From a virus, in IMG/VR virus record IMGVR_UViG_3300045999_006495, positions 13,848-77,847 of that record: a stretch of 64,000 nt of DNA; one strand, 5' to 3'. A program made the position numbers and the translations under genes. This document shows, piece by piece, positions 8,095 through 60,374 of the stretch. The notes beneath the pieces are model-generated. The model was not told the DNA's origin, ran no database searches, and worked only from the letters and a program-made list of their open reading frames with translations. Numbering within the stretch: position 1 is the first letter of the stretch; each line of letters begins with the position of its first letter.

Positions 8095-8170
8095 TGGTAC
8101 CGGTGGAGGGATTTGAACCCCCGACCCACAGTTTAGAAGACTGTTGCTCTATCCACTGAGCTACACCGGC
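8095..8170 (-). tRNA. tRNA-Arg (UCU)
   Basis: 76-nt cloverleaf; anticodon stem acagt/actgt with loop CTTCTAA; GTTCAAATC T-loop; encoded CCA. Confidence 0.95.
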
Positions 8171-8178
8171 ACTGTCCT

Positions 8179-8254
8179 TGGTGGGCCAGACAGGGGTCGA
8201 ACCTGTAACCAACTCGTTATGAGCGAGGTGCTCTAACCTTTGAGCTACTGGCCC
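8179..8254 (-). tRNA. tRNA with CAU anticodon, most likely tRNA-Ile2 (lysidine type)
   Basis: GGGCCAG acceptor stem, loop CTCATAA, GTTCGAC T-loop, A73, CCA; lacks the fMet C1 mismatch and the GGG/CCC anticodon stem. Confidence 0.85.
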
Positions 8255-8528
8255 GTTCTCTGATGGCCCACGTCTCTTTATAAGTCTTTGCAAACTTATT
8301 GAGGATTCTGATGGCTTCTTCATCAGTTGTATATCTGAACCAGTATTCTGGTGCTAACCTTGGGGTAAGTTTAGCTTCACCATCTTTACTGGTAATAAGC
8401 CATCTGTAGTAGATAGAACACTCATTATCTTCTACTACATGCTCAAGCTCAAGACGGGCTTTCTCTGTTATTGCTAACTCTGAAATAACCCGTCTTGTCT
8501 TTTTTGATTTAGGCTTTCTAATCTTCAT
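8217..8528 (-). CDS. Hypothetical basic protein whose 3' end runs into tRNA-Ile2
   Basis: SD GAGG; start overlaps the stop of the TROVE-like gene. Confidence 0.6.
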   Translation of the reverse strand: MKIRKPKSKKTRRVISELAITEKARLELEHVVEDNECSIYYRWLITSKDGEAKLTPRLAPEYWFRYTTDEEAIRILNKFAKTYKETWAIRERASSSKVRAPRS

Positions 8529-55553: not shown

Positions 55554-55584
55554 GCACCCCCTCTGAGAGGGGGTGCACTTTTTT
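55554..55584 (+). terminator. Intrinsic terminator
   Basis: gcaccccctc/gagggggtgc stem plus T-run. Confidence 0.85.
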
Positions 55585-55596
55585 ATTGGAGAAAAT

Positions 55597-56958
55597 ATGA
55601 AATACACATTATTTTTAGGGGACTGTTTAGATAGGCTCAAGTCTATGGAAGATAATTCTGTTCATAGTGTTGTAACAGACCCGCCTTATGGTCTAAGTGA
55701 TTTGTCCTCAGACAAAATTGTACAGACAATGAAAGAGTGGTCTAGTGGAAATCTTTCCTTTATTCCCAAAGGAAAGGGGTTTATGAATAAGGATTGGGAC
55801 TCCTTTGTACCACCGCCAGCTGTTTGGATTGAGGTTTTAAGAGTTTTAAAGCCCGGCGGTCATATTCTCTGTTTTGCTGGTTCTAGAACTATGGACTTGA
55901 TGAGCCTTAGTTTAAGAATTGCTGGTTTTGAAATTAGAGACACAGTTATGTGGCTTTACGGTTCAGGATTCCCGAAATCACACGATGTTAGCAAGGCTTT
56001 AGATAAAGTTGCTGGTGTTGAAAGAGAATTAGTCCCGGCTACGGGTAGTCTGCACAAAAATAGCAACCTAAATGATGATAACTGGTCAAAAATTGGTGAC
56101 TCAGAAGCCACAATGTGGAGTAATAACCCAATTACTGACCTAGCTAAGCAGTGGAATGGCTGGGGGACTGCTCTCAAGCCAGCTGTAGAGCCAATTATTC
56201 TTGCTAGAAAGCCTTTAGAGGGTACTGTTGCAAATAACGTAGCTAATTGGGGGACTGGTGCTTTAAATATTCAAGGCAGTCGAATTGGTTCTGATGTTAT
56301 GCCAGCACTTAAGGCTGGTCAGGCAAGACTGGGTACTTTTGAAAGAGAAGACATGATAACACCAGAGAGAGTTGGTCGCTGGCCAGCTAATCTAATTTTA
56401 GATGAAGAGGCGGCTGAGCTTTTAGATAATCAAAGTGGTCACAGCACTAGCAAAGCCAGCTCAAGCAGGAACGGTAATAATGTACAAGGTGTTACTGGTA
56501 TTATGGCCCCGAGAAGTAAAGACCAAATTAGAGGACATTCAGATTCTGGGGGTGCTTCTAGGTTTTTCTATGTGGCTAAGACTACTGGAAAGGAAAGAGA
56601 AGCCGGACTAGACTCTTTGGAAGAAAAGTTTATTGCTAAAGGAAACCAAGCCCAAGCTGAACTTAAAAGAGGAAATACAGACTTTTCTAGAGATGTAGAT
56701 ACTGCGGGACAAAACAAAGTGTTTGCTAGAAAAAACCATCATCCAACAGTTAAGCCTATTAAGTTGATGACGCACCTGTGCACTTTAGTAACACCAGAAA
56801 ATGGTATTGTCTTAGATCCTTTTATGGGTTCTGGGTCTACTGGAATTGCCGCTGTAACTTCTGGTTTTAATTTTATAGGTATTGAGATGAATGAAGAGTA
56901 TGTAGAGATTGCTAGACTTAGAATTGAGCACCACTCAAACAACAAATTTGACATTTAA
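55597..56958 (+). CDS. DNA N6-adenine/N4-cytosine methyltransferase (beta class)
   Basis: DPPY at the N-terminus, HPTVKP, DPFMGSGSTG at the C-terminus; SD GGAG. Confidence 0.92.
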   Translation: MKYTLFLGDCLDRLKSMEDNSVHSVVTDPPYGLSDLSSDKIVQTMKEWSSGNLSFIPKGKGFMNKDWDSFVPPPAVWIEVLRVLKPGGHILCFAGSRTMDLMSLSLRIAGFEIRDTVMWLYGSGFPKSHDVSKALDKVAGVERELVPATGSLHKNSNLNDDNWSKIGDSEATMWSNNPITDLAKQWNGWGTALKPAVEPIILARKPLEGTVANNVANWGTGALNIQGSRIGSDVMPALKAGQARLGTFEREDMITPERVGRWPANLILDEEAAELLDNQSGHSTSKASSSRNGNNVQGVTGIMAPRSKDQIRGHSDSGGASRFFYVAKTTGKEREAGLDSLEEKFIAKGNQAQAELKRGNTDFSRDVDTAGQNKVFARKNHHPTVKPIKLMTHLCTLVTPENGIVLDPFMGSGSTGIAAVTSGFNFIGIEMNEEYVEIARLRIEHHSNNKFDI

Positions 56959-57231: not shown

Positions 57232-57260
57232 TTGACATTTGATTTTAGGTATGGTATACT
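57232..57260 (+). promoter_or_regulatory. Sigma70-type promoter
   Basis: TTGACA-17 bp-TATACT, TG-extended. Confidence 0.8.
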
Positions 57261-57275
57261 ACTGAAGTAGGTTAA

Positions 57276-57440
57276 GCGTAGTTGCTACTCTCCCGGTAGT
57301 CTTTGCAGTGGTAAAGCGAACATGAATGAGGTCATCGCCAAGACCCAACGTTCATGACTTAAAGAGAGGTTAGTTAGAAGAAGCACCTTGGCTTGGCGAG
57401 CCAAAACGGCTAAGTGGTGAGCTACTACGCAATTCACCAC
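57276..57440 (+). ncRNA. Candidate multi-stem pseudoknotted RNA (5' leader of the BMP gene or independent ncRNA)
   Basis: At least six helices, a 7-bp loop-loop complementarity and a 5'/3' long-range helix (see findings). Confidence 0.65.
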
Positions 57441-57458
57441 GCAAATTAATTAGGAGAA

Positions 57459-58616
57459 ATGATGTTGCGAAAATTTTTGTTGCTTCTGGTAGCTTTGGTG
57501 TTCACTGCTTGTAGCACTGCACCGGCTGAGAAGTCAGTTCCAACTATTGGTATGGTCTTGGTCGGGCCTATCAATGACGGTGGATGGAGTCAAGCCCACT
57601 ACGATGCAATGATGCGTGTAGAAAAGGATGCTGGTATCAAGTTTGTCTATGTTGACAAGGTAAACCCAGCTGACCGACCTAATGTCAAGGTTGAGCAAGT
57701 CATTGAGGAGTTGATTGGTCAAGGGGCTACAATGATTATTACCAACTCAGATGACTTCAAGGATGGTACTCGTAATGCGGCTCTCTCACACCCAGAGGTT
57801 AAGTTTGTTCATGCTTCTGGTGATGACCGTATTACTGGTAAAGCACCAGATAACTTGGGTAATATGATGGGTAAGATGGAATACGGCAAGATGATTGCTG
57901 GTTGTACCGCTGCCCTTAGTACCAAGACTGGTAAGATTGGGTATGTTGGCCCGTTGATTAATGATGAGACTCGTCGTTTGATTAATTCAGCATATCTTGG
58001 GGCTAACTACTGCTGGACTGCTCTTCGTGGGGAAACTAAGCCACTTGAGTTTAATGTAGTTTGGGTAGGCTTCTGGTTTAACATTCCGGGTGTAACTCTT
58101 GACCCAGTAAACATCATCACTGACTTTGTAGCAACTGGTCATGATGTAATTATGGGTGGAATTGATACTCCCGATGTTGCTGTACAAGTAGCCAAGCATA
58201 GAGCTGATGGTAAGGATGTGTATTCACTTCCTTACGACCATCCAGAAGCTTGTGAAAAAGGCCCAGAGGCTTGTTTGGGCGTTCCTTACTTCAACTGGTA
58301 TCCAGAATACATGAAGTTGGCAGAATCCCACAAGTCTGGTACATTTAAGCCTGACTTTGTCTGGTTTGGTCCGGATTGGGACAATTTTGGGAGCATGGAC
58401 ACCAATGGAATTGGTTTTGTAAGAGGAAAAGCATTCACTGAGGATGCCGCCCTTGACCAGTTCATTGAGGTTCTTGCAAAAGGGACTAGCCTTTGGAAAG
58501 GTCCGCTTGAGTATCAAGATGGTTCTATGTTCCTTGAGGCAGGTGTAGTAGCTTCAACTGACCAGATTTGGTATCAAAAGAAGTTGCTTAAGGGTATTAC
58601 TGGTAAGTCTGAATAA
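57459..58616 (+). CDS. BMP-family ABC-transporter substrate-binding lipoprotein
   Basis: Lipobox FTAC, GPINDGGWSQAH, GKIGYVG, WVGFWF, YFNW; SD AGGAG. Confidence 0.88.
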   Translation: MMLRKFLLLLVALVFTACSTAPAEKSVPTIGMVLVGPINDGGWSQAHYDAMMRVEKDAGIKFVYVDKVNPADRPNVKVEQVIEELIGQGATMIITNSDDFKDGTRNAALSHPEVKFVHASGDDRITGKAPDNLGNMMGKMEYGKMIAGCTAALSTKTGKIGYVGPLINDETRRLINSAYLGANYCWTALRGETKPLEFNVVWVGFWFNIPGVTLDPVNIITDFVATGHDVIMGGIDTPDVAVQVAKHRADGKDVYSLPYDHPEACEKGPEACLGVPYFNWYPEYMKLAESHKSGTFKPDFVWFGPDWDNFGSMDTNGIGFVRGKAFTEDAALDQFIEVLAKGTSLWKGPLEYQDGSMFLEAGVVASTDQIWYQKKLLKGITGKSE

Positions 58617-58629
58617 CTTATATACACTT

Positions 58630-58657
58630 TTAGGGGAGGCAGAAATGTCTCCCCTAA
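58630..58657 (+). other. Stable GAAA-tetraloop hairpin (no U-tract)
   Basis: ttaggggaggca-GAAA-tgtctcccctaa. Confidence 0.6.
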
Positions 58658-58664
58658 CGCCATA

Positions 58665-59099
58665 ATGGAGGAAATCTTGGCTACACAAAAAGCACTCATA
58701 GATATGCCAGCTACTGAGCAAGAAGAAAAACCAGTAGAGGAAAAATATAGTACAAAAATTCAAGCCCCTATCTATGAACCAAAAAATCAAAAACCACACA
58801 TTGCTCTTCTCTGTGATGACACTAAAACCAAAGCATTGATTAGAGAAATTGAAGCTTCTAATCTTCCAGAGGAAGAAAAGAAGTTCTTAATTGAGGCAGC
58901 GCACAGACACTCTGTGTTTCATTATGAAAAGATTGCTGACTACTACGCTCATGCAAGTCCAGAGATGCAAGACCTGATGGAAAAGTCAGCTTTGGTTATT
59001 ATTGATTTTCACTCAGCTGTTGAGTATGGTTATGTTAGAGTTTGTACTCTAATCCACGAACAGTACTTACAGGAGCATAACAATGAGCCAGCTTCCTGA
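58665..59099 (+). CDS. Hypothetical protein coupled to the TAGT glycosyltransferase
   Basis: YSTKI..PIYEP, FL..AA.RH..F.YEKIADYYAH, SALVIIDF conserved-looking motifs; function unknown. Confidence 0.65.
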   Translation: MEEILATQKALIDMPATEQEEKPVEEKYSTKIQAPIYEPKNQKPHIALLCDDTKTKALIREIEASNLPEEEKKFLIEAAHRHSVFHYEKIADYYAHASPEMQDLMEKSALVIIDFHSAVEYGYVRVCTLIHEQYLQEHNNEPAS

Positions 59100-59955
59100 C
59101 GATTTTTGTATTTTTATTCTTTCTCATGGTAGACCAGATAATATCTGGACTCTCAAAACACTTAAAAAGGGAAATTACACTGGTAAGCTCTACATTGTAA
59201 TTGACAATGAGGATAAAACAGCTGAAAGATACTATGAAAACTTTGGTAGGGACACAGTTATCATGTTTGACAAGAAAGCTGAGGCTGATGATTGTGATGA
59301 GGGCAACAACTTTGATGAAAGAAGAACAATCACTCACGCCAGAAATGCAACTTTTAAGATAGCAAAACAACTGGGTATCAAATACTTTATGCACCTAGAT
59401 GATGACTTTAAGCAAATGGCCTATAAGGTTATTGATAAAGGAATAGCAAAGCAAAAACCTATCAAGGATCTAAACAGACTCTTTGCTAATCTTCTGGACT
59501 ATTACAAAAGCATTGACGCAGCTTCTATTGCTATTGCTCAAGGTGGTGATTACTTTGGCTTCAGTTCTACAAGTAATAGACCCTACACATTCTCAAAAAG
59601 AAAATGTATGAACAGTTTTATTTGCAGTGTTGATAGACCTTTTAAGTTTATTGGGGCTATGAATGAGGATGTTAATACCTATACCACTTTAGGAAGCCGG
59701 GGGGTTCTATTCTTGACCATTCCTAATGCTGGTTTATGGCAAGCACCTACACAGTCCCAGAGTGGTGGTATCACTGATATGTATAAAAGATTTGGCACTT
59801 ACGCCAAGGCCTTTACAACAGTAATGATGCAACCCAGCAGTGTTAAAATAAGCCTTGTTGGTAGTGCACATCATAGATTGCACCATAAGATTACTTGGAA
59901 ACTTACAGTACCTCAGATACTTAGGGAAAAGCACAAGAAACGTAAGGAAGAGTAA
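59083..59955 (+). CDS. TAGT/GREB1-like glycosyltransferase, third copy
   Basis: ILSHGRP, ARN, LDDD, QGGD, NSF, NEDV, GG.T..Y. Confidence 0.75.
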   Translation: MSQLPDDFCIFILSHGRPDNIWTLKTLKKGNYTGKLYIVIDNEDKTAERYYENFGRDTVIMFDKKAEADDCDEGNNFDERRTITHARNATFKIAKQLGIKYFMHLDDDFKQMAYKVIDKGIAKQKPIKDLNRLFANLLDYYKSIDAASIAIAQGGDYFGFSSTSNRPYTFSKRKCMNSFICSVDRPFKFIGAMNEDVNTYTTLGSRGVLFLTIPNAGLWQAPTQSQSGGITDMYKRFGTYAKAFTTVMMQPSSVKISLVGSAHHRLHHKITWKLTVPQILREKHKKRKEE

Positions 59956-60374
59956 TGACAAAGTTGATTTGTTATTTTGACGGGGGGATGCAACACGGGA
60001 GTTATCTTATCTTTGTGGATAACATCTCCCCAAAGACTATTTTGTATCATCACAAGTTTGACATGGATGGTATTGCCGACAGTAACCAAGCTGAGTTTAC
60101 TATGCTTTTACGCATGCTACGGCGACTACATATTCATTATGCTACACCAGACACAGAACCATTGTCAAACTTGTTTATAGATATTTATGGTGATAATACA
60201 TTAGTACCAAAGATGGTAGGTAAGAGAGTTGATGGTATTTGGAAAGGTGAGCTACACACAAATGCCGACTTTACTTACCTAACAGAGAGAATAAGGGAAA
60301 GGCTGGAAGCCTTTAAGGGATTTCACTATTACACAGTAAAGCGAAAGGAGATAGTGGCTAAACTTGGTCACTAG
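59955..60374 (+). CDS. RNase H-like fold protein
   Basis: YFDGG, SNQAEF, IYGDN acidic triad. Confidence 0.7.
   Translation: MTKLICYFDGGMQHGSYLIFVDNISPKTILYHHKFDMDGIADSNQAEFTMLLRMLRRLHIHYATPDTEPLSNLFIDIYGDNTLVPKMVGKRVDGIWKGELHTNADFTYLTERIRERLEAFKGFHYYTVKRKEIVAKLGH

Follow-up and report, generated by a model that had tools for sequence, protein, structure and literature searches.

BMP and nucleoside transporter genes are common targets of purine riboswitches. These RNAs (RF00167; xpt/add) occupy the 5' leaders of genes of the purine-uptake type, are about 70 nt long and contain a three-way junction in which two arms are locked by a loop-loop kiss between L2 and L3. Larger aptamers such as those for cobalamin (RF00174) and lysine (RF00168) are built around multi-helix junctions and also need a conserved kissing loop, which in cobalamin riboswitches connects to the expression platform. 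In preQ1-II/III, SAM-II/V and fluoride riboswitches a pseudoknot lies just upstream of the Shine-Dalgarno (SD) sequence and takes in the SD or its flank, and control is presumed to be exerted on translation initiation and not on termination. A last group comprises orphan candidates and phage structured RNAs that were found by comparison only; as described in PMC5737381 and PMC10690425, they are narrowly distributed, have no known ligand, precede a single class of gene and come from environmental or viral sequence, all of which they share with the leader described here.

This leader belongs to an uncultured lake-water phage with a record of 77.8 kb that is complete by CheckV. We analyzed a stretch of 64,000 nt from this record, referred to as the window (positions 13,848 to 77,847 of IMG/VR record IMGVR_UViG_3300045999_006495). 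A comparison with 50,697 deposited phages yielded no relative of the portal protein, and for the BMP protein only distant matches turned up, in unannotated gut phage records. The original prediction for this DNA was a compact pseudoknotted RNA between a strong promoter and the gene for a BMP-family solute-binding lipoprotein. All of the helices that it listed are present, as are the perfectly complementary loops TCGCCAA and TTGGCGA. The strong promoter and the BMP-family lipoprotein gene flank the leader as claimed, and the SD sequence, expected about 12 nt from the structure, follows the last helix at close to that distance (Table 1).

Table 1. Coordinates of the leader, its predicted structural elements and the surrounding features. 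Domain numbering counts from the first base of AGGUU (57269).
Feature	Window positions	Strand	Domain numbering	Remarks
DNA methyltransferase gene (PF01555) and a small ORF	55573-56958 (methyltransferase)			5' flank of the leader
Sigma70-type promoter	57232-57260	+		-35 TTGACA, 17-nt spacer, TG-extended -10 TATACT; 11/12 consensus matches
Conserved structured RNA domain, ~172 nt	57269-57440	+		5' AGGUURA, P1, P2a/b, P3, P4a/b, P5, L4:L5 kiss, P6
P1	57276-57282 GCGUAGU / 57424-57430 ACUACGC	+	8-14/156-162	7/7 pairs in all sequences
P2a	57285-57287 / 57371-57373 (UAG)	+	17-19/103-105	5' strand belongs to the pyrimidine tract
P2b	57288-57292 (ctctc) / 57364-57368 (GAGAG)	+	20-24/96-100	5' strand pyrimidine tract, candidate anti-SD
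J2/3 junction CCGGUAGU	57293-57300	+		GGUAG invariant in all lineages
P3 hairpin CUUUGC/GUAAAG	57301-57306 / 57311-57316	+	33-38/43-48	One G-U; variable 3-5 nt loop
P4a catgaatg/cgttcatg	57321-57328 / 57349-57356	+	53-60/81-88	One U-G; internal loop with conserved GA between P4a and P4b
P4b ggtc/gacc	57330-57333 / 57342-57345	+	62-65/74-77	Caps the P4 arm (57321-57356)
L4 loop	57334-57341	+	66-73	Contains invariant GCCA
J2/5 junction YKAGAMGRA..ACC	57374-57387	+		Conserved
P5 hairpin UUGGC/GCCAA	57388-57392 / 57400-57404	+	120-124/132-136	Loop L5 UUGGCGA 57393-57399 (125-131), UGGC invariant
Kissing loop	L4 57335-57341 UCGCCAA : L5 57393-57399 UUGGCGA	+	67-73/125-131	Fully complementary in the window
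P6 hairpin GUGGUGA/UCACCAC	57414-57420 / 57434-57440	+	146-152/166-172	13-nt loop carries the P1 3' strand 57424-57430
Shine-Dalgarno AGGAG	57452-57456	+		11 nt beyond the last helix
Start codons ATG ATG	57459-57464	+		
BMP/PnrA-family substrate-binding lipoprotein gene	57459-58616	+		385 aa, lipobox ..FTAC, Pfam PF02608 E 1.7e-17
139-aa gene	59955-60374			In relatives: L028:2652-3068; L002:4155-4556; L009:4152-4553; L003/L008:4162-4563; L007:4186-4587; L220:2424-2825; L222:2352-2732

The phage leader resembles the purine riboswitch in preceding a purine-uptake-type gene and in combining a three-way junction with a kiss that locks two arms. It differs in being about 172 nt long and in the placing of the kiss, in which L4 contacts the loop (L5) of a hairpin that is not part of the three-way junction. 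Within the P2/P3/P4 junction the P3 loop is short and variable (3-5 nt), and there is no kiss of the purine type. Its junction lengths and sequences (GGUAG, AGAMGRA..ACC, AACGR) are also unlike those of the purine riboswitch, which lacks the extra P1/P6 pseudoknot. The B12 box and the lysine-core motifs of the cobalamin and lysine aptamers are missing from the leader, the number and order of its helices differ from theirs, and its two kissing hairpins both lie inside P1, with neither holding the ribosome-binding site. With the preQ1-II/III, SAM-II/V and fluoride group it shares a pseudoknot just upstream of the SD and the presumed mode of control, whereas its SD lies past P6 with no visible sequestration, and there is no sequence or covariance-model (CM) similarity.

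A cmscan search of the whole window against Rfam 15 at the gathering threshold returned only two tRNAs located elsewhere. When the leaders of the window and of two related contigs (L028 and L009, see below) were compared with all 4227 families at E <= 10, there was no consistent match, only scattered chance matches to HIV-1 SL3, EIAV FSE and snoRNAs. No CM match was obtained to the purine (RF00167), cobalamin (RF00174), lysine (RF00168), TPP, SAM, FMN, glycine, ykkC, c-di-GMP or T-box families, in agreement with the original prediction, which had recognized no purine, lysine, TPP, SAM or cobalamin riboswitch. The domain is absent from Rfam 15, and none of the families compared has a fold close to the predicted one. 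We found no description of the motif among named motifs or in the literature searched, which includes general catalogues of candidate RNAs; it may have been listed earlier as an unnamed candidate in the catalogue for viruses (PMC10690425). A T-box, brought to mind by a UGGC loop facing an acceptor-like GCCA loop, was rejected on the missing CM match and on a P6 region unlike conserved T-box sequence.

The searches also bear on whether the leader might be a ribozyme, as the original prediction had allowed. Catalysis would be compatible with a fold that is pseudoknotted, rich in junctions and endowed with invariant unpaired nucleotides, and a self-cleaving ribozyme in the 5' UTR could control the fate of the mRNA by a logic like that of glmS. 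We consider this very improbable because no Rfam 15 ribozyme, including glmS, hammerhead, twister, pistol, hatchet and HDV-like families, had a match in the leader of the window or in those of L028 and L009 even at E <= 10, and no conserved cleavage-site signature was recognizable.

Long and short leaders among related phages

Protein-guided scans added about twelve viral contigs and 15 metagenome contigs that carry the BMP gene. The long leader is found in L025, L028, L009 and L002, where the BMP proteins share 98%, 89%, 89% and 84% amino acid identity, respectively, with that of the window. L002 is identical to L017 and L022, and L009 is identical to L020, L026 and L027. Together with the window this gives five distinct sequences from four lineages, L025 being a near-duplicate of the window; further variants of the leader are most likely to come from the loci of five close BMP proteins (P0002-P0006, 79-90% identity). 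A covariance model, R1, scored 146-191 bits in the five distinct sequences and identified exactly one copy per phage genome, always in the order promoter, leader, BMP gene. The predicted start of transcription lies 6-8 nt 3' of the -10 box and coincides with AGGUU (57269) or falls immediately ahead of it. A distance of 6-8 nt separates the end of the -10 box from the conserved AGGUU in all long-leader lineages, suggesting that the RNA begins at its first conserved base. Across the lineages compared, the promoter and +1 context is conserved and the linkage of the domain to the BMP gene is exclusive.

A strong promoter that sets +1 on the first conserved base, and a compact fold that would be stable when free, would also suit a stand-alone or processed small RNA, one that is released from the leader or ends ahead of the gene and has its targets in trans, in the host or the phage. 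This appears improbable to us. In the window sequence neither an intrinsic terminator nor a U-tract separates P6 from the SD, processing sites are not known, and the element is never apart from the BMP gene and is present in single copy. P6 itself, with a large loop and no U-tract, was rejected as an intrinsic terminator. The original prediction had offered a novel riboswitch-like element, a ribozyme or a stand-alone phage RNA; what is supported of this is a conserved, uncatalogued RNA in the leader of the BMP gene, and the last two options lose ground given the missing terminator, the constant position before BMP and the lack of a ribozyme match.

There is a second type of leader at phage BMP loci of 59-68% amino acid identity with visible upstream sequence (L003-L008, L029-L032, L219 and L222). 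These loci keep the same promoter and have, in place of the long leader, a hairpin of 20-30 nt at +1 followed by the SD. An example of the hairpin is GAGUCCUC...GAGGGA, and an AU-rich spacer lies between hairpin and SD. The short-leader sites lie near 2960-3000 in L003 and L005-L008, near 2950-2990 in L004 and near 1150-1190 in L219 and L222. A promoter of the TTGACA-17-TATACT type was not seen upstream of BMP in L220 and L221. Since the relatives at 59-68% identity retain the promoter and carry only a short 5' hairpin, the domain of about 172 nt is, on this comparison, a module added in one clade and not a general feature of the BMP gene. These sister phages, with the same promoter and gene and a hairpin leader, provide a natural minus-domain control.

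The simple hairpin found exactly at +1 in the short-leader phages suggests that some 5' structure is wanted regardless of sensing. The long leader might likewise be purely structural, with no small-molecule ligand, and serve to protect the 5' end from 5'-dependent RNases, to give the ribosome a standby or enhancer context, or to act as the operator of an RNA-binding protein of the phage or the host. In line with this explanation, no convincing conserved expression platform was found, and the phage encodes a Ro/TROVE-like RNA-binding protein (DUF2828/VWA). On the other hand, a hairpin of about 20 nt suffices for the relatives, and 172 nt with nine helices, a kiss, a pseudoknot and about 30 invariant unpaired bases far exceed the needs of a stabilizer. 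The locus has no candidate binding protein linked to it. We regard a structural or protein-bound, non-sensing leader as a possible but rather doubtful explanation, and as the main rival of a sensor.

Two pattern scans for the leader returned only the known instances and chance matches, which in one of the two lay in a phage tape-measure-like coding region (L040-45). Another scan was too loose to be selective, with at least 120 loci, and a scan of genome contigs gave 33 matches, fewer than expected by chance. A single chance match from another pattern scan (L226) was rejected because it had no covariance-model match. A long hairpin of cyanobacteria (L053, L054, L064, L066 and L067), which is among the 33 matches, was also rejected as a relative since it shares pattern letters only and R1 gave E > 0.3. 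This hairpin is a multi-copy inverted repeat of filamentous cyanobacteria with arms of ~19-30 bp (GUUUCGACUNCGCUCAAC...GGUUGAGCGUAGYCGAAAC), located at L053:374, L054:3694-3728(-), L064:5389, L066:7426-7460(-) and L067:2021. Its carriers are an Elainellales MAG (3 copies), Stenomitos and Leptolyngbya, and it looks like a mobile-element end or a repeat family.

Predicted fold and its conservation

Folded alone, the window leader has a minimum free energy (MFE) of -56.1 kcal/mol, which is no better than that of shuffled sequences (z -0.98), so that the case for a structure rests on comparison. Using a structure-blind MAFFT alignment (A4), RNAalifold gave -27.8 kcal/mol versus -13.7 +/- 3.3 kcal/mol for column shuffles, none of which reached this value (z -4.3, 0/300). 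Removing the near-duplicate L025 changed the z score to -3.7. When the helices were placed by coordinates in each sequence, all nine were paired in 5/5 sequences from the four lineages. The homologues, whose collection had been proposed with the original prediction as a check, carry compensatory changes across these lineages, in seven of the nine helices; P3, P4a, P4b and P6 are altered on both strands. In a second alignment (A6), which was made with the CM and in which part of P4 is still misaligned, 86.7% of the cells were paired, as against 32-44% when the partners were slid by 1-3 columns. Fifteen pairs in this alignment were altered on both sides, compared with 3-8 for slid partners, and the covariation score was reached by 0/500 shuffles. 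These covariation statistics are thin because there are only four independent lineages, all tied to one gene in one phage group. The P4 helices were partly placed by hand.

The strength of conservation was gauged against the coding sequence downstream. Between lineages, the 4-fold degenerate sites of BMP are 31-48% identical, indicating that little neutral similarity is left, whereas the leaders are 57-69% identical. Chance complementarity in an ordinary, functionless spacer, which the single-sequence energy would allow, is already contradicted by these comparative data: the leader is conserved well above saturated synonymous sites, most of its helices show compensatory changes, and its alifold score is far from that of shuffled columns. 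We find this explanation hardly credible.

Conservation extends to bases outside the helices. Across the four lineages 36% of the unpaired columns and 8/10 kissing-loop columns are invariant, and the invariant unpaired bases form the blocks AGGUU.AGCGUAG, GGUAG, GA, GCCA, G.CU..A.GA.A, AGA.G....ACC, UGGC and CUACGCA. The comparison reveals purifying selection on the unpaired junction bases. Junctions that are invariant and stems that covary are together the hallmark of a specific tertiary fold or a binding pocket, and constraint on junctions is typical of aptamer cores. Several pairs in P3, P4a, P2a and P6 are G-U and would turn into C/A mismatches on the opposite strand, which identifies the + strand as functional. 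On neither strand is a reading frame open in all lineages, and a leader peptide or antisense ORF was rejected on this ground. As judged from these alignments, the 5' leader of the BMP gene holds, on the + strand, a genuine, conserved, pseudoknotted and non-coding RNA domain. It is a conserved structured domain backed by covariation, as in the generic definition of a riboswitch.

In the predicted fold (Table 1), P1 closes a multi-helix junction, and P2 bears a three-way junction with P3 and P4. A separate hairpin, P5, would be locked to P4 by the conserved loop-loop kiss between GCCA and UGGC, and the P6 loop, which presents the P1 3' strand, would form a pseudoknot with P1 that ends 11 nt ahead of the SD. 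Pairing in helix 2 is 90%, with three pairs altered on both strands; P2a is CUAC/GUAG in L002 and ACGG/CCGU in L028. The 3' strands of P2 (57364-57373) are purine-rich and SD-like and are bordered by conserved J4/2 on the 5' side and conserved J2/5 on the 3' side. The P3 hairpin reads CUUUGGC/GCCGAAG in L002, CCCUAGU/GCUGGGG in L009 and CUUUGC/GCAAAG in L028. P4 is CUGGUGUU/AACAUCGG in L028, the U-G pair of P4 is a U-A pair in L025, and P4b occurs as GGUC/GACC, AGUA/UACU or GUUA/UAAC across the lineages. The stem of P5 is different in every lineage (ACAGG/CCUGU, UCAGU/ACUGA, GGUU/AACC), and four of its five pairs are altered on both strands.

The kissing loop is 7 bp long in the window, 6 in L028, 5 in L009 and 4 in L002, with 96% of cells paired. 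Its core, GCCA/UGGC, is invariant. A flanking C-G pair is replaced by A-U in L009, which is a compensatory change, and L002 has an A/A mismatch at the flank.

P1 forms 7 bp in the window, or 9/10 pairs when extended to gcgtagttgc/gctactacgc as originally claimed. The P1 sequence of L028, GCGUAGG/CCUACGC, contains a compensatory change from U-A to G-C. P6 covaries at 4/7 pairs (ACGGCGG/UUGCCGU, GUGGC/GCCAC, UGUGGCA/UGCCACA). Whether the pairing of P1 with the P6 loop represents a second pseudoknot or an alternative fold had been left undecided in the original prediction. The two linkers that flank the P1 3' strand in the P6 loop are equal within each lineage (3/3, 3/3, 5/5 and 4/4 nt), and both helices covary. 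We therefore read P1 and P6 as a pseudoknot whose helices form together, and the first of the two options is the one that stands.

The invariant 5' AGGUU (57269-57273) is able to pair with the invariant ACC(U) of J2/5 (57385-57388). This could be a third pseudoknot, on which covariation cannot judge because all of the bases are invariant. An alternative partner proposed by RNAalifold is ACC/GCC of the P6 3' strand (57436-57438), where the bases are invariant too.

The BMP gene, its neighbours and candidate control by the leader

The nearest solved relatives of the phage BMP protein are AtzT (6PI5, E 5.8e-23) and a Brucella protein (3S99, E 9e-21). AtzT binds guanine with a Kd of 110 nM and adenine with a Kd of 2.5 uM, and 3S99 was modelled with adenine (PMC6834077). 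In an alignment, the stacking aromatics of the AtzT site (W43, W206), Ser97 and Glu170 are kept in the phage protein, and the two Asn residues with which AtzT reads the guanine edge correspond to Gly234 and Asp236. From these residues and the distant homology we infer that the phage protein binds a planar, purine-like ligand. Its specificity is uncertain because both guanine-reading Asn residues are replaced. No PHROGs v4 family matched the phage protein. The closest cellular homologues are from Chloroflexota (~55-61% identity), followed by those of a few filamentous cyanobacteria (50-54%; 7/301 genomes). At the two cyanobacterial loci examined, the BMP orthologues stand alone without ABC partners and thus give no hint of a ligand. 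R1 had no match at the cyanobacterial orthologue loci, and no Rfam riboswitch was found near these genes.

Given the conserved fold and the gene that it precedes, we tentatively regard the domain as a riboswitch-like, cis-regulatory sensor of the BMP gene, an assignment that we hold at somewhat less than even confidence. Against a sensor stands the observation that R1 had no match in the bacterial genomes sampled, 151 of Chloroflexota and 151 of Cyanobacteria; bacteria are where most of the validated classes of riboswitch occur. No terminator-like element precedes the SD, which together with the conserved promoter would place the domain in the 5' UTR, and control would be exerted on translation or on stability. 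We infer ligand binding, the nature of the ligand and an anti-SD switch along the following lines. The compact fold would be stabilized either by a ligand, for which the gene served makes a purine-related metabolite most plausible, or by another cellular factor. In this fold the pyrimidine tract of the P2b 5' strand (57288-57292) would be occupied by its internal purine partner. In the unfolded domain the freed tract would pair with the SD and lower translation.

This tract is the sole candidate anti-SD. Its sequence is CUCUCC in the window, CUCUUCU in L009 and UUCUU in both L002 and L028, and in 4/4 lineages it can pair either with the P2b 3' strand or with the SD. The unconstrained MFE fold pairs the tract with the SD in L002 and L009, and the probability that the SD is unpaired is 0.42 in L002, 0.03 in L009 and 0.77 in the window, where it is mostly open. 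The duplex between anti-SD and SD was no stronger than shuffled controls in 3/4 lineages. Constrained-fold energies, for which the SD range of the window was one nt off, did not discriminate between the states. A platform in which the SD is free when the domain is folded and masked when it is unfolded is our best guess, made with low confidence.

We think it possible, but on the whole unlikely, that the leader represents a new riboswitch class confined to this group of freshwater phages. Its ligand would be a purine-related metabolite, be it a base, a nucleoside or a modified or deaza-purine, and it would tune translation of a purine-scavenging BMP protein and of the replication gene co-transcribed with it. 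If the domain does sense a metabolite, it would be a riboswitch class with a new fold, in which a three-way junction is joined by an external kissing hairpin and by a P1 pseudoknot presented by a loop. It would then also be the phage's own RNA sensor for an auxiliary nutrient-scavenging gene of the BMP family. Should it sense nothing, it is still a compact and well-defined RNA with tertiary structure. With the hairpin leaders of the sister phages as a control, it is useful for studying how phages tune the expression of host-like uptake genes, and the comparative evidence is good enough to justify a bench test.

Codons 2-3 (or 3-4) of BMP are UUG CGA A in 4/4 lineages (window 57462-57470; L002, L009 and L028), and they are constant although 4-fold sites elsewhere in BMP are only 31-48% identical. 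The UUGCG of these early codons is able to pair with CGCA(A) in the 3' strand of P1. The start of the ORF may be under constraint at the RNA level.

A gene for a protein of 139 aa lies 3' of BMP in all relatives with enough downstream sequence, and in the long-leader lineages it directly abuts BMP. Its product is predicted to fold as an RNase H1 (pLDDT 92.8; Foldseek TM 0.66-0.69 to the archaeal-type RNase H1 structures 4E19/3HST) and contains a conserved DGG...SNQAE...YGD motif, with no Pfam or PHROG match. Judging from the predicted structure, BMP and RNase H look like a conserved phage gene pair, suggesting that the leader heads a small nucleotide/replication module. In this phage only, an ORF for a ParB-like protein (phrog_620) and one for a TET-associated glycosyltransferase (PF20691) lie between BMP and the RNase H-like gene (window 58665-59955), which hints that DNA hypermodification genes were acquired inside the leader-controlled unit. 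Elsewhere in the window, at 8095-9951 on the minus strand, a gene for a DUF2828/DUF7788/VWA protein (phrog_850 'RNA-binding protein', TROVE/Ro-like) adjoins tRNA-Arg(UCU) and tRNA-Met. Between the BMP stop codon and the next SD, at 58629-58658 of the window, there is a 9-bp hairpin (UUAGGGGAG...CUCCCCUAA) with no U-tract, which might serve in processing or stability or be a weak terminator.
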